Origin: Candidatus Microgenomates bacterium
GTDB taxonomy: Bacteria; Patescibacteriota; Microgenomatia; UBA8517
Length of the DNA stretch: 64,000 nucleotides
Direction of reading: 5' to 3'
Assembly (NCBI GenBank): GCA_049519355.1
Contig: JBEKQV010000001.1
Location: 315,946 to 379,945 of the forward strand
The notes under the pieces are model-generated. The model did not search any database, had not been told where the DNA came from, and saw nothing but the letters and a program-made list of their open reading frames with translations. Both the position numbers and the translations under genes were made by a program. How positions within the stretch are numbered: the first letter of the stretch is position 1; every line of letters starts with the position of its first letter. Positions 11,938 to 61,557 of this stretch are shown piece by piece.

Positions 11938-12921
11938 ATGAAAACTTGGCAAAGAATCAAGGACAATCCAAATCTTTTGAACCAATATCTGGTTCGGGAA
12001 AAAGTTATTGATACGATCCGCTATTTCTTTAAGTCTCAGGGCTTTCACGAAGTTTTTACTCCGGAGCTGGTTCCTGTTCCTTCCATTGAACCAAACTTGG
12101 AAGTTTTTGAAACCGAACTTAGAACATCTAAAGGATTGAAACGCCGAGGATTTCTAATTATGAGTCCGGAGTTTTCCATAAAGAAACTTTTGTCCGCGGG
12201 AGTAGGGAATTGTTTTGAAATTACAAGATGTTTTAGAAATGAAGAAGAAGTAAGTTCTCTCCACAACCCCGAATTTACGATGCTTGAGTGGTATAGGGTT
12301 CAGGCCGATTATACGGATGTAATGAAAGATTTTGAACAGCTTTTTACTAAGATTATTATGGAGGTTAATCCCAAGGTCGATTTATCGAAGTGGAAGTACC
12401 AGGGTGAAACCTATGATCTTTCGCTTCCTTGGCCGAGAATCAGTTTTGAAAGGGCTTTCGCCAAATTTGCCGGGAAAAAGATCGAGGATGTAAAAGATGA
12501 AGATTTTTATCAAATCTTCTTTAATGACATTGAGCCAAAATTAAGGGAAAGTGGAAGACCTGCAATTATTTACGATTATCCGATTTCACAGGCGGCTTTA
12601 TCCCGACCGAAGGCATCGGATCCTAGGTTTGCCGAAAGATTTGAAGTGTTTTTAGCAGGAGTTGAGCTGGGAAATTGCTTTTCGGAGCTGACAGACGCAG
12701 TGGAGCAAAAGAAGCGCTTTGAATCGGACTTGACTCTCCGCCGGGCCCAGCATAAATCGGATTATCCGATTGATGATGATCTGATAGATGCTCTCGAGGC
12801 GGGCTTGCCTCCGGTTTCGGGAATTGCAGTTGGAGTGGATAGACTTATTATGCTTGCCGCCGATGTTCCTTCAATTGCAGACACCTTATTTTTTCCGGGT
12901 AAGGAGCTATTTGACCTCTAA
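11938..12921 (+). CDS. epmA: Elongation factor P--(R)-beta-lysine ligase (class II LysRS paralog GenX/PoxA)
   Basis: Class II aaRS motifs FEITRCFRNE and GLPPVSGIAVGVDRL. It is a truncated LysRS-like protein of 327 aa located directly upstream of efp. Confidence 0.8.
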   Translation: MKTWQRIKDNPNLLNQYLVREKVIDTIRYFFKSQGFHEVFTPELVPVPSIEPNLEVFETELRTSKGLKRRGFLIMSPEFSIKKLLSAGVGNCFEITRCFRNEEEVSSLHNPEFTMLEWYRVQADYTDVMKDFEQLFTKIIMEVNPKVDLSKWKYQGETYDLSLPWPRISFERAFAKFAGKKIEDVKDEDFYQIFFNDIEPKLRESGRPAIIYDYPISQAALSRPKASDPRFAERFEVFLAGVELGNCFSELTDAVEQKKRFESDLTLRRAQHKSDYPIDDDLIDALEAGLPPVSGIAVGVDRLIMLAADVPSIADTLFFPGKELFDL

Positions 12922-12949: not shown

Positions 12950-13516
12950 GTGGATACAATTAATGCGGGTAATATTACAAAAGGTAGCTTCATTATTTTT
13001 AAGGGAGCTCCGGTACTGATCACAAAGGCTGAATTTATGTCGCCCGGAAAGGGCTCTCCTGTTATGCGGATAAAGTTTAAGAATGTACAAACAGGTTCCG
13101 CGGGGGAGTTTACTTATAAAACAGCCGAGACAGTCGAGGTTGCGGAAGTTGAGAAAAAAGAAATGGAGTACCTCTATAGAGATGGTGATGACTTGGTATT
13201 TATGGATCCGAAATCTTATGATCAGGTTTCAATTCCTATGAGTTTAATTGAAGGACAATTTGGCTACTTAACCCCAAACCTTAAATGTTGGATTGTCTGG
13301 TATAAAGGCAAAGCCATTGGTGCGGCGCTTCCGACTCATGTAACTTTGCAAGTGACCGAATCCCCGGATGAGGTTGCCGGAAACCGTTCCAATGCTCCCA
13401 AAAAGACTGTGAAGTTGGAAACCGGAACCACGGCCCAAGTGCCGCTTTTTATCAAGGTCGGTGAAAAGGTTATGCTGGATACGGCAACCGGTGAATATTT
13501 GGGTAGGACAAAATAA
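12950..13516 (+). CDS. efp: Elongation factor P
   Basis: 188 aa, KOW-like N-terminus with the modified-lysine loop SPGKGSP; typical EF-P length. Confidence 0.9.
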   Translation: MDTINAGNITKGSFIIFKGAPVLITKAEFMSPGKGSPVMRIKFKNVQTGSAGEFTYKTAETVEVAEVEKKEMEYLYRDGDDLVFMDPKSYDQVSIPMSLIEGQFGYLTPNLKCWIVWYKGKAIGAALPTHVTLQVTESPDEVAGNRSNAPKKTVKLETGTTAQVPLFIKVGEKVMLDTATGEYLGRTK

Positions 13517-40428: not shown

Positions 40429-42885
40429 ATGGAACTGCAAACCGTAAAAAAAACTACAAAAGCCAAAAAACAGAAATTTATCTATAAGAATGGTGAAACG
40501 AAAGTTTCTATTGAAAATCTGATTGCCCCTTCATATGAGGAAATTATGGCGGAAGTCCATAAAAAAATTGGTGAGAGACCTGAAATGGATTCCGCTCTTC
40601 AAAAAGGGAATTGGACCGAGCAGGCACTAAAAGTTTTGGGAGAAAGATACTTGGTTAAAAATGAGAAACTGGAACCAATCGAAACACCCGAACAAATGGT
40701 TTGGAGAGTTGCTTGGGAGATAGCCTCCGCCGAGGCAAGATGGGGAGTTAAGAAAAAAGAAGTGGAAGTACTTGCAAAAGAATTTTATAACCTTATGGCA
40801 TCACGACAGTTTTTGCCTAATTCACCAACTCTTATGAACGCAGGAACAGGAAACGGGCTTCAGTATTCCGCCTGTTTTGTTTTGCCCGTAGAGGATTCAA
40901 TGGAGGGAATATTTGATGCTCTTAAATACCAGGCGATAATTCATAAAACCGGGGGCGGAACAGGATTTTCTTTTAGCCGCCTTCGTCCTAACGGTTCGAT
41001 TGTAAAGACTTCTTCGGGGACGGCTTCCGGACCTGTATCTTTTATGAGGATTTTTGATGCTGCCACAAACGAAGTTAAGCAGGGAGGAAAAAGAAGAGGG
41101 GCAAATATGGGGATACTTCGGGTGGACCACCCCGATATTTTGGAGTTTATTCATTGTAAGGAAGAGGGCGGAATAACCAATTTCAATATTTCTGTTGCCA
41201 TCACCGATAAATTTATAGATGCTTACTATAAAGATGAGGATTATGAGCTGATCAACCCTAAGACAAAAGAAGTTGCCGGAACTCTTTCGGCCAGGCGTGT
41301 CTTTGACGAAATTGCGGACGGAGCTTGGAGAACCGGGGACCCTGGGTTGATTTTTGTGGATAGGATAAATGCCAGTACAGCAAATCCTGTTCCGGCTCTG
41401 GGACCGATAGAGTCAACTAACCCTTGCGGAGAACAACCTCTTTATCCGTATGATGCTTGCAACCTCGGCAGTATTTTTCTTACTTATTTTGTCAAAGAAG
41501 CCGGTGGAAAAAAAGAAGTTGATTGGTCGAAACTCAAAAAGGTAACCCATCAAGCCGTTCGTTTTTTGGATAATGTTATTGAAGTTAATCCATACCCACT
41601 GGATCAAATCCGGAAAACCGTTTTCAATAGCCGTCGAATCGGTTTGGGTGTAGGGGGTTGGGCCGATATGTTAATAAGTCTCGGCATTCCTTACGATAGC
41701 GACGAGGCAATGAAACTCGGAGAGAAAATTATGAAAGTAATTCAGGAAGAGGCGGTTGACGAATCCAGAATTTTGGCAAAAACCCGCGGACCGTTTCTTC
41801 TCTGGCCGGTTTCAATTTATAGGGAAGAGGTTCCCAGACGGAATTCAACCGTTACAACAATTGCGCCGACGGGGACGATCTCAATAATTGCCGGAGCAAG
41901 TAGTGGAATTGAACCACTTTTTGCAATTGCGTTTCAGCATATTGTTAAAGATAAACATTTGGATAGAAAACTTTCTTTTGTAAATCCGGAATTCGAAAAA
42001 GTGGCTAAAGAAAAAGGTTTTTGGTCAGAAGATCTAATGACCAGGGTTTCCGAGAAGGGAGTGATAAGAGACATAGAGGAGATTCCTGAAGATGTAAGGG
42101 CGGTTTTTGGTACAGCTCACGAAATTGATATTGACTGGCACGTAAGAACACAGTCTGTTTTTCAGAAATACACGGAGAATGCCGTAAGTAAAACAATAAA
42201 TCTTAGACATGACGCAACAGTTGACGATGTCAAAAAAGCTTACCTTTTGGCTTGGGAAACAAACTGCAAAGGGATCACAATTTTTAGAGACGGCAGTAAA
42301 AATACCCAGGTTCTAAACCTTGGGGTGAGCGATAAAGCAAAAACTGAAAATGAAGCGCCGGTTCAAACGCAAGTGATTCAAGAAAGACCCCTTAAGGTTG
42401 AAGGCGCAACTTATAGAATTGTGACTCCTCTGGGAAGCGCGTTTATTACTGTCAATCAGGACCCCGCCGGAAATCCGTTTGAAGTTTTCATAACCATCGG
42501 TAAAGCCGGAAGCGAAGTCGCCGCTATGGCTGAGGCACTCGGAAGAATGATCTCCACAACACTTAGGTTTGGGAATCACTTGCCGCCGCGCGAGAGAGCT
42601 AGAGAGATTGTCGATCAGTTGAAAGGCATCGGCGGCGGTCGTTCGGTAGGATTTGGTCCGAATAAAGTCAGATCCCTTCCCGATGCGGTCGCAAAGGCAC
42701 TTTCACTTCACTTTGGATTTGGAAATGGGGAAACCCAACACCAAGTTCCTCAACAAGTTGAAGCGGTTCCGGTAGAGCCAGAAATGGAAAAAGTTGGTGA
42801 TATTTGTCCTTCCTGCGGCAGCCCAGCACTTGTTTATGAAGAGGGCTGTGCTAAATGCCATGCTTGTGGGCACTCGGAATGCTAA
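40429..42885 (+). CDS. nrdJ: Ribonucleotide reductase, class II (adenosylcobalamin-dependent)
   Basis: About 820 aa; active-site region NPCGEQ; C-terminal Zn ribbon CPSCGSPALVYEEGCAKCHACGHSEC, typical of class II RNRs. Confidence 0.9.
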   Translation: MELQTVKKTTKAKKQKFIYKNGETKVSIENLIAPSYEEIMAEVHKKIGERPEMDSALQKGNWTEQALKVLGERYLVKNEKLEPIETPEQMVWRVAWEIASAEARWGVKKKEVEVLAKEFYNLMASRQFLPNSPTLMNAGTGNGLQYSACFVLPVEDSMEGIFDALKYQAIIHKTGGGTGFSFSRLRPNGSIVKTSSGTASGPVSFMRIFDAATNEVKQGGKRRGANMGILRVDHPDILEFIHCKEEGGITNFNISVAITDKFIDAYYKDEDYELINPKTKEVAGTLSARRVFDEIADGAWRTGDPGLIFVDRINASTANPVPALGPIESTNPCGEQPLYPYDACNLGSIFLTYFVKEAGGKKEVDWSKLKKVTHQAVRFLDNVIEVNPYPLDQIRKTVFNSRRIGLGVGGWADMLISLGIPYDSDEAMKLGEKIMKVIQEEAVDESRILAKTRGPFLLWPVSIYREEVPRRNSTVTTIAPTGTISIIAGASSGIEPLFAIAFQHIVKDKHLDRKLSFVNPEFEKVAKEKGFWSEDLMTRVSEKGVIRDIEEIPEDVRAVFGTAHEIDIDWHVRTQSVFQKYTENAVSKTINLRHDATVDDVKKAYLLAWETNCKGITIFRDGSKNTQVLNLGVSDKAKTENEAPVQTQVIQERPLKVEGATYRIVTPLGSAFITVNQDPAGNPFEVFITIGKAGSEVAAMAEALGRMISTTLRFGNHLPPRERAREIVDQLKGIGGGRSVGFGPNKVRSLPDAVAKALSLHFGFGNGETQHQVPQQVEAVPVEPEMEKVGDICPSCGSPALVYEEGCAKCHACGHSEC

Positions 42886-43451: not shown

Positions 43452-43796
43452 ATGGCGGGTACACCAGAAATTCAAAGCGCTAAACCGGAAATTCAGGAGG
43501 TAAATAAAGAAGCGGAGTTTATAGTTCCCGAAACCCTTCAAAACTCCGGTGTACAGGTTGTCCAAAAAACTTTTAAAGCTCAGGTTAAAGACGGCAAGGG
43601 GCAGCCTCTTATCCAAACTCCGCCGACACAAGTTATCACAGTTCAGCCGCCTTACGACCAGACAACTTTGGTAAAACAGTCAAAGGCTTCAACTTCGTCA
43701 TCGCTAACCTGGCTATCCGCGTTCTGGATTAGAATTATTAAAAAAGCTCTCCATTTTGGCTGGAAGATAGTAGGAAAGGATCAAAATGTTTCTTGA
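43452..43796 (+). CDS. Hypothetical protein (with a C-terminal amphipathic/TM segment)
   Basis: ORF track; overlaps the start of the downstream ATPase. Confidence 0.4.
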   Translation: MAGTPEIQSAKPEIQEVNKEAEFIVPETLQNSGVQVVQKTFKAQVKDGKGQPLIQTPPTQVITVQPPYDQTTLVKQSKASTSSSLTWLSAFWIRIIKKALHFGWKIVGKDQNVS

Positions 43797-46119
43797 GAAT
43801 ATTAATTTTACAGGCATAATATTTGCGGCGGTTGGTATTGCCGTATTTGTTTTTTTGCTGGTTGCTGTGGGGTACGCCGTTTTTATTTATTTCAAAAATA
43901 GGGATAGGGAGGAAAATTCTATTGACTCGGTTCTTCTTCAAGTTGCGGTTCCTAGGAACAACGAAATCAAGATTGATGTTATGGAGCAGCTTTTTTCGTC
44001 AATTTACTCGATGAAAAAAGGAGGTTGGAAGCAAAAGTTTTCGGTCCAGCCTGCCATTTCTTTTGAAATTGTGGCACGTTTAGAAGATATTCGTTTTTAT
44101 GTCTGGGCGCCGAAAAAACTTAAGGATCTTATCGAGAAACAAATAAATGGAGCTTACCCCGATGCCGATATTATTGAGGTTGATGAATACAATCTATTTA
44201 CCAAAAATGGGCATGTCGCTTACAAGTCATATCAACTTGGCAAAAGTAATTTTTATCCTCTTAAGACTTTTAAGGACCTTCCGACCGACCCAATGCTTGG
44301 AATTACTTCCGCTCTTGCCAAAATGGGACCCGATGAGGGGGCTGCGATTCAGATATTGATTTCGCCGGCGGAAAGTACGTGGCAAAAAGAGGGAAGTCAT
44401 TTTATAAGTGAAACAAAAAAACAGGAAAGCGATCCGGAAAAGGCGAAGTTTTCCACACCTGCAAAAACTTTGGAGGCGGTAGAAAATAAAGTTGCCAAGC
44501 TGGGTTTTGAGACTTCCATTCGTGTTGTTGCGGTTTCGACGGATGACGCTTCCGCGAAAAATCACATATCCAATATAGGAGGCGCATTGGCACAGTTTGC
44601 GGGGGACCTTAATAGCCTTAAAAGCCGAAAAATTTACAGGAAGGGAGCGTTTATGGAAGATTTTCTTTACAGGTATCAACCGATGTTCAATCTATTCGGT
44701 AACCACCGTTCCATTCTTAACTCGGAAGAGCTGGCTACAGTTTTTCACTTCCCGAATAAACAAATTACAACACCTCACATCTTTTGGCTGAATTCCAAAA
44801 CCGCCCCGGCACCTTCGCAAATACCGACTGAAGGGCTTTACCTGGGAGTGAGCGCTTACAGGGGAATCAAGAGACAGGTTTATATCGGCAACGAGGACAG
44901 GATGAGGCATATTTACGTAATTGGAAAAACCGGAACCGGAAAGTCCGAACTTCTCAAAGACATGATTCTTCAGGATATAAGAGCTGGAAAGGGACTTTGT
45001 TTTATGGACCCACACGGAGATGCGCTCCAAGACATAATGAAGCTTATTCCTCCTGAGAGGGCCGAAGATGTCATTTACTTTAACCCCAGCGATACCGAGC
45101 GGCCAATGGGTCTTAATCTTCTGGAGGCAAAGACAGAAGATGAAAAGCATTTTGCGGCAACCGCAGTAATCAACATGATGTACAAACTTTTCGACCCTTA
45201 TAAAACTGGAATTGTGGGACCAAGGTTTGAGCACGGCGTCAGGAATGCAATGCTTACTGCAATGGCCGAGCCGGGTAATACTTTCGTTGAGGTTATGAGA
45301 ATTATGACGGATGCCAAGTTTGTTCAAGAACTTCTTCCCAAAGTAACTGACCCAATGGTCAGGCGCTACTGGACCGACCAAATTGCCCAGACAGCAGACT
45401 TCCACAAGTCCGAGGTTTTGGATTATACGGTTTCCAAGTTTGGCCGCTTTGTCACAAACAGGGTAATAAGAAATATTGTTGGACAATCGGTTTCGTCGTT
45501 TAATTTCAGGGACATAATGGATAATGGAAAAATCTTACTTATTAATTTGGCGAAAGGAGAACTCGGTGAGGAAAACAGCAATTTCTTAGGTTTAATTCTT
45601 GTTCCGAGAATTCTTATGGCGGCAATGAGCAGGGCGGATGTTCCTGAATCCCAGAGACGGGATTTTTATTTGTATGTTGACGAGTTCCAAAATTTTGCTA
45701 CCCCCGACTTTGCCGTGATTCTATCTGAGGCAAGAAAGTATAGACTCGGACTTTGTGTCGCCAATCAGTTTATTGGACAAGTTGAAGAAGAGGTTAAAAA
45801 TGCAGTTTTTGGCAATGTCGGAACAATTATTTCCTTCCGTGTAGGAGTAACCGATGCCAATTATCTTCAGCACGAATTCACACCCACTTTTGCGGAGGAT
45901 GATCTTCTCAATGTCGAAAGATATCACGCCTATGTCAAAACGACGGTAAACAACGAACCGGTTCCTCCTTTCTCGCTCGATTTAACCAAGGACATAACTA
46001 AGATCAAAGCTGCCCAAAGCGATAGGGTTGCCGAAATTATCACCGAAATGAGCAGACTCAAATATGGACGTGACGTAAAACTTGTTGAAGCGGAGATGGA
46101 AAGAAGGGCAAGGCTGTGA
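43786..46119 (+). CDS. Membrane-anchored VirD4/TraG/TraD-like type IV coupling-protein ATPase (AAA_10 / TrwB-like)
   Basis: Two N-terminal TM helices; Walker A VIGKTGTGKSELLKDM; Walker B LYVDEFQNF; GLCFMDPHGD. Overall layout as in T4CP/TraD proteins. No other T4SS genes in the window. Confidence 0.6.
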   Translation: MFLENINFTGIIFAAVGIAVFVFLLVAVGYAVFIYFKNRDREENSIDSVLLQVAVPRNNEIKIDVMEQLFSSIYSMKKGGWKQKFSVQPAISFEIVARLEDIRFYVWAPKKLKDLIEKQINGAYPDADIIEVDEYNLFTKNGHVAYKSYQLGKSNFYPLKTFKDLPTDPMLGITSALAKMGPDEGAAIQILISPAESTWQKEGSHFISETKKQESDPEKAKFSTPAKTLEAVENKVAKLGFETSIRVVAVSTDDASAKNHISNIGGALAQFAGDLNSLKSRKIYRKGAFMEDFLYRYQPMFNLFGNHRSILNSEELATVFHFPNKQITTPHIFWLNSKTAPAPSQIPTEGLYLGVSAYRGIKRQVYIGNEDRMRHIYVIGKTGTGKSELLKDMILQDIRAGKGLCFMDPHGDALQDIMKLIPPERAEDVIYFNPSDTERPMGLNLLEAKTEDEKHFAATAVINMMYKLFDPYKTGIVGPRFEHGVRNAMLTAMAEPGNTFVEVMRIMTDAKFVQELLPKVTDPMVRRYWTDQIAQTADFHKSEVLDYTVSKFGRFVTNRVIRNIVGQSVSSFNFRDIMDNGKILLINLAKGELGEENSNFLGLILVPRILMAAMSRADVPESQRRDFYLYVDEFQNFATPDFAVILSEARKYRLGLCVANQFIGQVEEEVKNAVFGNVGTIISFRVGVTDANYLQHEFTPTFAEDDLLNVERYHAYVKTTVNNEPVPPFSLDLTKDITKIKAAQSDRVAEIITEMSRLKYGRDVKLVEAEMERRARL

Positions 46120-46976: not shown

Positions 46977-46984
46977 CTTCTTTG

Positions 46985-47057
46985 TGGGTGCGCATGGATT
47001 CGGACCATGGACATCTACTTTATAAGAGTAGCGCTCTACCGCTGAGCTACGCACCCT
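46985..47057 (-). tRNA. tRNA-Ile with anticodon UAU (gene TAT)
   Basis: Hand-folded cloverleaf: acceptor GGGTGCG/CGCACCC, D-arm GCTC-AGCGGTA-GAGC, anticodon arm CTACT-CTTATAA-AGTAG (U33, anticodon UAU, A37), T-arm CATGG-TCCGAAT-CCATG, discriminator A. Confidence 0.65.
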
Positions 47058-47091: not shown

Positions 47092-47991
47092 TTACAGCTC
47101 TACGAGGGTTTGCTTTTTGCCGGGTTCGGTTATTTGGGCAAGTTCCAAGTACCTTTCGGTTGTGGAAAGGCGCTTGTGACCCGTAACCTGGGAAAGTAGC
47201 ACGATATCGACTCCGGCCTTAAGGTTTTCAACAATAAAGGTGGTTCTCAAGTCGTTTACTGAATAGTTTGGAAGCTCAGCCTTTTGAATATACCTGGCGA
47301 TTGAGGCCCTGATATTTCTGACAGCCAAAGGCTTTCCGTTTTTGCTTATAAAGACATGGAGAGATTCCGGTTTGGGTCTAATTGCTATATAAGCATTTAA
47401 AACCTCCGTGGCGGGTTTATTAATAGGAATATTTCTTTCCGGTTGCGTGGCGTAAGCTTCAACTTTGATTGAGTCCTTGCCAACATTTGCAATTTTAAGG
47501 CCGGCAACCTCGGAAATTCTAAGGCCGGTCTGCAAGATAAGTTCAATTATGGCTGCAATTCTGGTATCGTTTCTGACAACGTCCCTCAAAGCTCTGTATT
47601 CAAGCTGGGTAAGGAACTTGGGGAGAATGTTTTCAATCTTAGGATGAGCAACAGATGCCGAAACATCCGAGGTGACCACGTTTTCAGAGATCATCCATCT
47701 GAAGAAGGTTTTGACGGCATTTAGCTTTCTGCTAACCGATTTGGGGGTATATTTGTCAGCCAATAAGGTATCGCGGAAGCTGTCAAGATCGTCCGGGCGA
47801 ACCTGTTCAGGTAGAACTTTTTGCCTCTTGATAAGAAAATCCACTAACTGCTCAAGGTCGCTTCTGTATGCGAGAATAGTCGCAGGAGAGCGCCCTTTTG
47901 ACTTAAGGGATTCTATAAACTTAGGGAGCAGGTTTTTAACGGGTTCTTGTGTCATACTATTAACTAGGTCATTATTATAGCCCAAATTCAC
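47092..47991 (-). CDS. Tyrosine recombinase, XerC/XerD family
   Basis: N-terminal SAM-like core-binding domain; catalytic R in TGLRISE; H-x-x-R...Y in GHKRLSTTERY. Confidence 0.8.
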   Translation of the reverse strand: MNLGYNNDLVNSMTQEPVKNLLPKFIESLKSKGRSPATILAYRSDLEQLVDFLIKRQKVLPEQVRPDDLDSFRDTLLADKYTPKSVSRKLNAVKTFFRWMISENVVTSDVSASVAHPKIENILPKFLTQLEYRALRDVVRNDTRIAAIIELILQTGLRISEVAGLKIANVGKDSIKVEAYATQPERNIPINKPATEVLNAYIAIRPKPESLHVFISKNGKPLAVRNIRASIARYIQKAELPNYSVNDLRTTFIVENLKAGVDIVLLSQVTGHKRLSTTERYLELAQITEPGKKQTLVEL

Positions 47992-48410: not shown

Positions 48411-48480
48411 TTGCGGGGCTGGGAGTTGAACCCAGCCTGCGAGATTATGAGCCTCACGTGCAGCCGTACACTACCCCGCA
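48411..48480 (-). tRNA. tRNA with anticodon CAU (elongator Met or Ile2-lysidine type)
   Basis: Acceptor TGCGGGG/CCCCGCA, anticodon loop CTCATAA, T-arm CTGGG-TTCAACT-CCCAG. The D-arm is short (6-nt loop) and the anticodon stem has two G-U pairs. Confidence 0.5.
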
Positions 48481-48530: not shown

Positions 48531-48604
48531 GCCAAGGTAGCTCAGTCGGTAAGAGCGCGGCATTCATAACGCCGAGGTCGAGAGTCCGATTCTCTCCCTT
48601 GGCA
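48531..48604 (+). tRNA. tRNA with anticodon CAU (Met or Ile2-lysidine type; not an initiator, since G1-C72 is paired)
   Basis: Acceptor GCCAAGG/CCTTGGC, D-arm GCTC-AGTCGGTAA-GAGC, anticodon arm CGGCA-TTCATAA-CGCCG (A31-C39 mismatch), T-arm GAGAG-TCCGATT-CTCTC, discriminator A. Confidence 0.7.
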
Positions 48605-49604: not shown

Positions 49605-49955
49605 ATGGACGCGATAAATTTCGATGAGTTCTCAAAAGTAGATATAAGAATAGGTACCGTCATTGAAGCGGAAGTGCCTGAGTGGAGTCATTGGGTTATC
49701 CGAATGGAAGTTGACCTAGGCCCCGAAATCGGAAAAAAGAAAGCCTTTTCCGGCATCAAAAAATTTTTTGAGCCGAAAGATCTTGTTGGGAAGCAGTTTC
49801 CGTTTGTTGTTAATCTTGAGCCGAAAAAGATTGGTCCTGAGCACGAACTATCCGAAGTAATGATGATTATGGCAGTTCCAGCCGAAGACGAAGAAACTCC
49901 AACAGTTCTTTTTAGACTCCTCAAAAAGGTTCCAGATGGGACAAAAGTGAGATGA
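49605..49955 (+). CDS. tRNA-binding (EMAP/Myf/CsaA-like OB-fold) domain protein
   Basis: FSKVDIRIGTVIEAE ... VVNLEPKKIG matches the tRNA-binding domain pattern FxKxDLRVGxI...aNLkPrKxxG. Confidence 0.75.
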   Translation: MDAINFDEFSKVDIRIGTVIEAEVPEWSHWVIRMEVDLGPEIGKKKAFSGIKKFFEPKDLVGKQFPFVVNLEPKKIGPEHELSEVMMIMAVPAEDEETPTVLFRLLKKVPDGTKVR

Positions 49956-60760: not shown

Positions 60761-61081
60761 ATGGCAGGAACAGGTCTTAAAAAAACAACCGCAGGAGCAC
60801 TAGCTTACGTTTTAGGTCCCATAACCGGAATAATTTTTCTGTTGATTGAAAAAGATCCATTTGTCAGATTCCACGCAATGCAATCCACAGTGGTATTTGT
60901 GTTTTTATTTGTTTTGCAATGGATTTTGGGAATTACAATTATTCTTTTTCCTTTGGCAGCGCTCGTCGGCCTTGTCGCTTTTATACTTTGGCTTATACTT
61001 ATCTACAAAGCTTGGCAAGGTGAGCAGTGGGAGGTACCGGTGCTCGGTAAGATTTCCAAAAATTTGCTCAAGAAAGCTTGA
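60761..61081 (+). CDS. Small membrane protein, DUF4870-like
   Basis: ALAYVLGPITGIIFLLIEKDPFVRFHAMQS resembles the DUF4870 N-terminal motif; two TM. Confidence 0.45.
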   Translation: MAGTGLKKTTAGALAYVLGPITGIIFLLIEKDPFVRFHAMQSTVVFVFLFVLQWILGITIILFPLAALVGLVAFILWLILIYKAWQGEQWEVPVLGKISKNLLKKA

Positions 61082-61086
61082 ACTCT

Positions 61087-61557
61087 ATGAGACTTTTGGT
61101 AGGGCTGGGCAACCCGGGGAGGCAGTATGTAAATACACGTCATAACGCCGGGTTTTTTGTGGCAGACAGTCTTTACAGCCGGAAAGTTCCTGCCGGTTTT
61201 GTAATTAAGAAATCAGATGTTTTCATGAACGAATCTGGTGTTTTTGTTAAAAAACTGGTTGATCAATATAAACTTGAACCTTCTAACTTATATATCGCCC
61301 ATGACGACCTCGATATTCCACTTGGGGCGTATAAAATTCAGCTTGGTGTTGGGCCCAAAGTCCATAACGGGGTTAATTCAGTTGAGGAGGAACTCGGGAC
61401 GAAAGATTTTTGGAGAGTCCGTATAGGAGTGGATAATCGAAAGCCGGATGACAGAACTTCCGGGGAGGAATATGTACTTCAAGATTTTACCGCTGAGGAG
61501 CGAAAAGCTCTGGACGGGGTTATCCAAGAAATATGCAAAAAGTTGGTGACATTATAA
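61087..61557 (+). CDS. pth: Peptidyl-tRNA hydrolase
   Basis: MRLLVGLGNPGRQYVNTRHNAGFF is the Pth signature. Start ATG 61087. Confidence 0.9.
   Translation: MRLLVGLGNPGRQYVNTRHNAGFFVADSLYSRKVPAGFVIKKSDVFMNESGVFVKKLVDQYKLEPSNLYIAHDDLDIPLGAYKIQLGVGPKVHNGVNSVEEELGTKDFWRVRIGVDNRKPDDRTSGEEYVLQDFTAEERKALDGVIQEICKKLVTL

Follow-up and report, generated by a model that had tools for sequence, protein, structure and literature searches.

The DNA stretch analysed here, referred to as the window, has a length of 64 kb, which corresponds to 7.6% of the 846,396-bp metagenomic contig k141_495298 (ENA ERZ27249956; bases 315,313-379,312), the one contig recorded with exactly the recombinase protein of the window, and belongs to a genome of roughly 0.85 Mb. 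Judged from the encoded sequences, the host is a Candidate Phyla Radiation (CPR) bacterium, namely of Candidatus Woesebacteria/Microgenomates in the class Microgenomatia (Patescibacteria). The window carries a tRNA-Ile gene whose UAU anticodon is encoded in the DNA, and two tRNA genes with CAU anticodons are found nearby. These three genes constitute the complete tRNA set reported for the window by ARAGORN:

46985..47056, minus strand: tRNA-Ile(UAU) gene, 72 nt, without encoded CCA (ARAGORN, Rfam, minimum free energy (MFE) fold, covariation)
47022..47024, minus strand: its anticodon U34-A35-U36, read directly from the sequence and matching AUA by complementarity
48411..48480, minus strand: initiator-type tRNA(CAU), Rfam 46.6 bits, acceptor stem UGCGGGG/CCCCGCA plus A73, with U1-A72
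48531..48604, plus strand: elongator tRNA-Met(CAU), Rfam 65.1 bits, with C3-G70, A4-U69 and A5-U68

ARAGORN called a tRNA-Ile with the anticodon tat at 46984-47056(-), and the Rfam family RF00005 aligned along its entire model (1-71) to 46985-47056(-), scoring 70.7 bits with E = 1.9e-13, where the gathering score is 29. The unconstrained MFE fold of the 72 nt is likewise the cloverleaf (z = -2.9 versus shuffles). The minus-strand sequence of the gene is GGGUGCG-UA-GCUC-AGCGGUA-GAGC-G-CUACU-CUUAUAA-AGUAG-AUGUC-CAUGG-UCCGAAU-CCAUG-CGCACCC-A and is composed of the acceptor stem GGGUGCG/CGCACCC with the discriminator A73, the D-arm GCUC/GAGC, the anticodon arm CUACU-CUUAUAA-AGUAG and the T-arm CAUGG-UCCGAAU-CCAUG, in which position 55 is a C. 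The 7-nt anticodon loop C32-U33-U34-A35-U36-A37-A38 is closed by the pair U31-A39. The 3' flank continues as CACCCA/CAAAG, the slash marking the end of the gene, and CCA is thus not gene-encoded. From the identity elements of the E. coli isoleucyl-tRNA synthetase (IleRS), A73, A37, A38 and U12-A23 are present, while C4-G69 and C29-G41 are absent. A preliminary description of this DNA, folded by hand, had presented the anticodon stem CTACT/AGTAG and the loop CTTATAA with U33-UAU-A37, and the minus-strand reading is identical to it. Its suggestion to have the anticodon called by a dedicated program also turned out in its favour, as ARAGORN reports UAU, Rfam concurs on the gene and no pseudo-tRNA is indicated. 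The interval of 46985-47057 given there starts correctly and ends one base too far (the true end is 47056), and the strand had been left implicit; both points are trivial. A real tRNA-Ile gene with a DNA-encoded UAU anticodon in the window is therewith confirmed.

Relatives of the host were found via the tryptophanyl-tRNA synthetase (TrpRS; 57-84% identity) among GTDB genomes and correspond to metagenome-assembled genomes named Candidatus Woesebacteria, Candidatus Microgenomates or Patescibacteria group, a few of which bear evidently wrong automatic labels; the homologs of the class II ribonucleotide reductase (RNR) are also named Woesebacteria or Microgenomates. A tRNA with the anticodon tat is present in seven relatives (L002, L003, L004, L006, L007, L008 and L011), 1.3-3.2 kb apart from the same CAU tRNA(s) beside TrpRS. 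In the resulting alignment of eight genomes, i.e. the window and the seven syntenic relatives, the mean column identity is 78%, and the structure is nonetheless kept: standard pairs account for 99.4% of the pair cells, and both-sided, compensatory changes occur at 13 of the 21 pairs, distributed over all four helices. None of 500 shuffles attained the observed values and all slid controls stayed far below them. The loop CUUAUAA and the U31-A39 pair are invariant in all eight orthologs. Position 3-70 is occupied by G3-C70 in five genomes and by A3-U70 in three, pairs which Silva et al. (2006, PMC1635315) describe as marking a tRNA-Ile and as discriminating against both Met and fMet; C4-G69 and C5-G68 are present in some of the orthologs. 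Moreover, the sequence of the window gene recurs identically in eight further independent assemblies (JGI, Logan and ENA samples). On this comparative basis, the gene is shown to be a canonical cloverleaf tRNA under purifying selection, which is syntenic across related species.

An unusual feature of the tRNA is the T-loop UCCGAAU, in which a C replaces the near-universal U55 (pseudouridine 55) and which provides the sole difference to the L007 ortholog. C55 is also found in the elongator tRNA-Met of the window genome, of L002 and of L007 as well as in the L011 initiator, and the T-loop of the L005 initiator reads CGCAACU. These data suggest that the constraint on T54/psi55 is relaxed in the clade, possibly as a result of a loss of TruB or TrmA.

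The two CAU tRNAs, reported in the preliminary description at a distance of about 1.4 kb, are real according to ARAGORN and Rfam (48411-48480(-) and 48531-48604(+)). A direct BLAST search of a CAU tRNA against E. coli only yielded a weak tRNA-Met match (E = 7) and was replaced by an explicit comparison with the three E. coli reference tRNAs (initiator, Met and Ile2), which had been verified at 100% identity against annotated genomes. The initiator-type tRNA differs from the E. coli initiator at 21 positions, from Ile2 at 28 and from Met at 31. Among the Woesebacteria relatives its sequence hardly varies; in L009, which is more distant, the ortholog retains C1xA72, the canonical mismatch. The initiator of the window is atypical in carrying U1-A72 for C1xA72, U11-A24 for the initiator-specific A11-U24 and a D-loop of 6 nt; its anticodon stem keeps one of the three canonical G-C pairs (G30-C40). 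The elongator tRNA and its ten syntenic orthologs share C3-G70, whereas C4-G69/C5-G68 is found in none of them. According to Silva et al. (2006, PMC1635315), the acceptor stem of a tRNA-Ile2 is recognized by C4-G69 together with C5-G68, or by a 3-70 pair other than C-G, while C3-G70 represents the Met pattern. Within the elongator set, 9 of 10 resemble the E. coli tRNA-Met more closely than tRNA-Ile2, L005 being the clearest case with 12 versus 21 differences; for the window copy the margin is small (23 differences to tRNA-Met versus 25 to tRNA-Ile2). By the acceptor features and the distances to the E. coli references, neither CAU tRNA has the appearance of a tRNA-Ile2. The local AUN-box set is thus composed of an initiator, an elongator Met and an AUA-reading Ile tRNA.

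How AUA can be read while AUG is left alone is a long-standing question about the genetic code, and the essential enzyme TilS is the answer in nearly all bacteria. The genome-level searches for this system covered the 64-kb window and about 20 kb of flanks. Neither the window nor 26 related loci, together about 455 kb, contain a TilS-like open reading frame (ORF) with the SGGxDS PP-loop motif, and a tblastn search with E. coli TilS on the same sequences gave a best E value of 3.5. In Mycoplasma genomes tilS is located between pth and ftsH (Silva et al. 2006, PMC1635315). Here, the slot upstream of ftsH is filled by TrpRS and a small tRNA-binding-domain protein, and pth lies elsewhere in the window (61078-61557) with no adjoining tilS. 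Extension from the edge genes provided about 5 kb of annotated right flank (on a 10.9-kb contig from another sample) and none on the left side, and neither tilS nor ileS was found therein. An IleRS gene is likewise absent from the window and the related loci according to a check of large ORFs, the only large class I synthetase being a LeuRS-like ORF in L012. Most likely, the UAU tRNA stands in for tRNA-Ile2(CAU) and TilS, both of which the lineage would have lost. Altogether, we propose, with a probability of roughly 80%, that a functional, chromosomally inherited tRNA-Ile with an encoded UAU anticodon decodes AUA as isoleucine in this Woesebacteria/Microgenomates bacterium and thereby replaces tRNA-Ile2(CAU) and TilS.

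In a different scenario, tilS and tRNA-Ile2(CAU) would be retained elsewhere in the genome and the UAU tRNA would serve as a parallel, redundant AUA reader, equivalent to an intermediate stage in the scheme of Taniguchi et al. Taniguchi et al. (2013, PMC3575796) indeed state that LAU and UAU decoders coexist in some bacteria, and the visible part amounts to only 7.6% of the contig. We nevertheless regard such a redundancy as rather improbable. Both local CAU tRNAs classify as fMet and Met, no TilS homolog occurs in the 455 kb inspected, the slot upstream of ftsH is otherwise filled, and a genome of about 0.85 Mb is unlikely to retain a redundant system. A further argument is provided by Table S2 of PMC13011429 (mSystems 2026), which lists ARAGORN tRNA counts per amino acid for 95 complete Patescibacteria genomes and names every CAU tRNA 'Met':

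Microgenomatia, all 12 complete genomes: Ile at least 2, CAU at most 2
Dojkabacteria (all 7), WWE3, UBA1384 and Doudnabacteria: Ile 2, CAU 2
Saccharimonadia (nearly all), all JAEDAM01, Kazan-3B-28 and three Gracilibacteria: Ile 1 in most, CAU 3 (4 in two genomes)
Paceibacteria and ABY1: Ile mixed, CAU mixed, many with Ile 2 and CAU 2

According to these counts most genomes keep four AUN-box tRNAs in total, with one CAU swapped for one Ile-anticodon tRNA. As initiator and elongator Met are both indispensable, a genome with two CAU tRNAs has none left for tRNA-Ile2(CAU) and thus no substrate for TilS, and the limit of two CAU tRNAs in all 12 complete Microgenomatia argues against a redundant system. 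In four of the complete Microgenomatia genomes only one CAU is listed; atypical initiators may sometimes escape ARAGORN. The count pattern is passed without comment in PMC13011429, and its reading in terms of UAU is our own.

Four points weigh against the preferred reading of the UAU tRNA as a functional AUA decoder in place of the lysidine system. First, the published counts refer to amino acids and not to anticodons, such that 'Ile = 2' could in principle reflect two GAU genes; as UAU genes were directly seen in eight Woesebacteria/Microgenomates genomes, GAU plus UAU is the natural reading. Second, tilS, a third CAU tRNA and IleRS may lie in the other 92% of the genome, and the evidence that distinguishes replacement from redundancy is indirect. 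Third, C55 could weaken the tRNA, a concern countered by its fixation in eight independent assemblies and by its recurrence in the tRNA-Met of this and two related genomes. Fourth, the tRNA is known here from its gene sequence. Extending the replacement beyond the studied lineage, we lean slightly towards the view that whole classes of the CPR decode AUA with the UAU tRNA, i.e. those of Microgenomatia including Woesebacteria, of Dojkabacteria, WWE3 and UBA1384 and of much of ABY1 and Paceibacteria, and that TilS, lysidine and tRNA-Ile2(CAU) were discarded there and kept in Saccharimonadia and Absconditabacteria. The UAU tRNA-Ile had been introduced as rare in bacteria, which is correct with respect to the few bacterial lineages known to have it; within this phylum, in contrast, the counts make it apparently a class-wide trait. 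Among the papers searched, none links lysidine or tilS with Patescibacteria or the Candidate Phyla Radiation, and the occurrence of UAU tRNAs in this radiation seems to be undescribed, though it is implicit in published tables.

The meaning of AUA was approached by its usage. Counted over 67 window ORFs that do not overlap, 325 of 1350 Ile codons are AUA (24%), giving a frequency of 17.8 per 1000 codons, which corresponds to a 'high' use in the categories of Muraski et al. 2025. Its share among AUU/AUC/AUA equals that of GUA among GUU/GUC/GUA, i.e. the compositional expectation, and the TilS-bearing Bacteroides fragilis (44% GC) uses AUA about as often (16.8 per 1000). The AUA frequency therefore does not discriminate between the decoding systems, and AUA bias had to be rejected as a criterion: of the usage test put forward in the preliminary description there remains that AUA is freely used, but in no excess over composition, which makes the test uninformative. 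The genome had also been termed AT-rich, which applies in moderation only, the GC content varying from 37 to 45% within the window around an overall value of about 41-42%. Distant TrpRS homologs from Chloroflexi and Bacteroidia were uninformative as well, since they offer few AUA codons and these at variable positions. A more direct view was obtained by aligning orthologous genes of the window and of the loci L002-L012 and by tabulating the codon opposite each window codon:

Window AUA, 563 aligned sites: AUU 193, AUA 118 and AUC 73 in the relatives; Ile 68%, Val 13%, Leu 7%, Met 4%
Window AUU, 1504 aligned sites: Ile 66%, Val 14%, Leu 8%, Met 2% in the relatives
Window AUC, 568 aligned sites: Ile 69%, Val 10%, Leu 7%, Met 3% in the relatives
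Window AUG, 738 aligned sites: Met 71% in the relatives

AUA stands opposite AUU or AUC at 47% of the aligned positions and opposite AUG at about 4%. Its site profile corresponds to those of AUU and AUC, unlike that of AUG, and AUA thus behaves as a synonymous Ile codon. AUA denotes Met in many mitochondria. A change of the code, with the UAU tRNA bearing another amino acid than Ile (e.g. Met), or an ambiguous decoding, in which it would significantly read AUG too, might be considered in view of the altered codes of some CPR lineages and of the ability of an unmodified U34 to wobble, in principle, with G. The indistinguishable exchange profile and the G3-C70/A3-U70 acceptor pair, which according to Silva et al. 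(2006, PMC1635315) discriminates against Met tRNAs, render this scenario very improbable. By the aligned genes AUA means isoleucine, and a code change is excluded for practical purposes. An alternative strategy of AUA decoding, as previously envisaged for this locus, is well supported by the UAU call of two tools, the compensatory changes and the free use of AUA with the meaning of Ile.

The surroundings of the tRNA-Ile(UAU) gene are occupied by genes of cellular housekeeping, comprising the class II RNR with NrdR, UDP-glucose dehydrogenase and a Xer-type recombinase, and furthermore DivIC, TrpRS, FtsH, a 5'-3' exonuclease and Fpg. Four features of this neighbourhood deserve a closer look:

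47092..47991, minus strand: Xer-type tyrosine recombinase (Pfam Phage_integrase plus SAM-like N-terminal domain), called with 299 aa
47974..48001, minus strand: sigma-70-like promoter TTGACA-16-TATAAT (12/12 in a consensus scan), upstream of the recombinase and tRNA-Ile(UAU)
43786-46119, plus strand: DUF8128 protein, 777 aa, with a faint TrwB/TraG coupling-protein-like ATPase signature
49605-49955, plus strand: free-standing tRNA-binding-domain protein, 116 aa (PF01588, Trbp111/CsaA-like)

The recombinase is the immediate upstream neighbour of the tRNA on the same strand, separated by 35 nt, and is 62-89% identical in the syntenic relatives carrying the UAU tRNA. The genes for RNR, DUF8128, UDP-glucose dehydrogenase, DivIC, TrpRS, the tRNA-binding-domain protein and FtsH are also conserved around the UAU tRNA in these relatives. 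With the recombinase and its neighbours thus conserved, the 'phage integrase' family gene is a chromosomal Xer-type recombinase and does not indicate an island. A collection of phage records displayed weak ftsH similarity to the window and nothing substantial otherwise, and an origin of the tRNA from a phage or mobile element was rejected on account of this result and of the conserved chromosomal context of the recombinase. The view that the gene stands outside the core machinery of translation, as a pseudogene, a chance tRNA-like fold or the cargo of a mobile element, could invoke the tyrosine recombinase 35 nt upstream, the TrwB/TraG-like ATPase 0.9 kb off and the T-loop C55, but is hardly credible in the face of the gene order kept in the UAU-carrying relatives, the compensatory evolution in all four stems, the invariant anticodon loop, the Rfam match (E 1.9e-13) and the phage records matching by no more than ftsH.

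Several observations were made along the way on individual neighbours. The promoter overlaps the start of the 299-aa recombinase call; in other assemblies the gene is called with 287 aa, as would be expected if it starts downstream of the promoter. The DUF8128 protein is the product of a core gene rather than a conjugation remnant; it is kept at 71-85% identity beside UDP-glucose dehydrogenase in all relatives. The PF01588 protein is placed between TrpRS and FtsH, and at the same place in relatives. Farther off, a class II synthetase-like paralog (PF00152, tRNA-synt_2; 314-327 aa; 11938-12921(+)) directly adjoins EF-P (12950-13516(+)), an arrangement resembling that of EpmA/PoxA, the EF-P lysyl transferase, which is unexpected in a CPR genome. 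The search for RNR homologs returned close Microgenomates relatives only (73-100% identity) and no outgroup. Some Microgenomates class II RNR homologs (P0065, P0109 and L007 1492-3963) reach about 1200 aa and contain intein and LAGLIDADG domains; the RNR of the window (40429-42885) is without intein.

For AUA decoding by the encoded UAU anticodon we propose the following sequence of events. Transcription of the tRNA would accompany or directly follow that of the Xer recombinase gene, as the arrangement of the two genes suggests co-transcription, and the transcript would be trimmed and provided with CCA post-transcriptionally. Charging might be performed by IleRS, for which A73, A37 and A38 are present, and A37, following U36, is probably modified as a t6A site. 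U34 would then pair with the third-position A of AUA. Avoidance of AUG might be accomplished by an unmodified U34 combined with discrimination by the ribosome, as in Mycoplasma mobile, or by a modification of U34. IleRS could accept U34 because the residue equivalent to E. coli Trp905 is altered or because the enzyme is of the eukaryote type.

The closest counterpart is the tRNA-Ile2(UAU) of Mycoplasma mobile (PMC3575796, PMC1635315), which is also a bacterial, genomically encoded AUA decoder with UAU anticodon in a small genome. M. mobile has lost tRNA-Ile2(CAU) and tilS, and the same arrangement is presumed for the Woesebacterium. In M. mobile the unmodified state of U34, the required Arg865 of IleRS and the rejection of AUG by the ribosome have been established experimentally, whereas the present case is built on sequence data. 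The two also differ in the T-loop C55 of the window tRNA and in their distribution, M. mobile being a single species in Tenericutes, while the gene described here is conserved in a clade and, by the published counts, across whole CPR classes. Bifidobacterium and Neorickettsia likewise employ a tRNA-Ile(UAU) in place of the lysidine system with tilS absent; their characteristic is an IleRS of the eukaryote/archaeal type (PMC3575796). Bacterial 'tRNA-Ile3(UAU)' was noted in 17 genomes by the authors of tRNAscan-SE 2.0 and is recorded for 19 species in tRNADB-CE. In the suppressor of a tilS deletion in Bacillus subtilis (Fabret 2011; Koehrer 2014, PMC3919564), a tRNA-Ile with U34 also sustains AUA decoding without TilS; it arose in the laboratory by mutation of a different tRNA gene, in contrast to the natural and conserved gene considered here.

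Beyond the bacteria, the archaea Nanoarchaeum equitans and Korarchaeum cryptofilum possess a tRNA-Ile3(UAU), which similarly replaces a tRNA with a modified cytidine in reduced or deep-branching uncultured lineages, and Nanoarchaeum parallels the CPR in its small genome and episymbiotic lifestyle. These organisms belong to another domain, and the modification lost there is agmatidine (TiaS) and not the product of TilS. With the canonical pair of tRNA-Ile2(CAU) and TilS the UAU tRNAs of this study have in common the reading of AUA as Ile without AUG and the G3-C70 or A3-U70 pair. They differ from it in that UAU is encoded, which makes the conversion of C34 to lysidine needless, and no TilS was found in the window and the related loci.

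For naturally occurring bacteria with a plain UAU tRNA, the number of genomes had been below 20 (Mycoplasma, Bifidobacterium, Neorickettsia). The system itself is of a known kind, the Mycoplasma mobile type, and its occurrence in Woesebacteria would add a large uncultured radiation. If the class-wide distribution holds true, no other bacterial radiation that lives without lysidine would come near the CPR in size, and a clade-wide adaptation to the AUA/AUG problem would be implied, either in IleRS, in the ribosome or in the modification of U34. The trait would serve as a phylogenetic marker splitting the Patescibacteria into 'lysidine' and 'UAU' classes, and would offer many natural variants of IleRS and the ribosome for studying the acceptance of U34 and the prevention of AUG misreading. 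In practical terms, these genomes would be mis-scored by programs for annotation or completeness in which tilS or tRNA-Ile2 is expected, and antibacterials targeted at TilS would be ineffective on such organisms.

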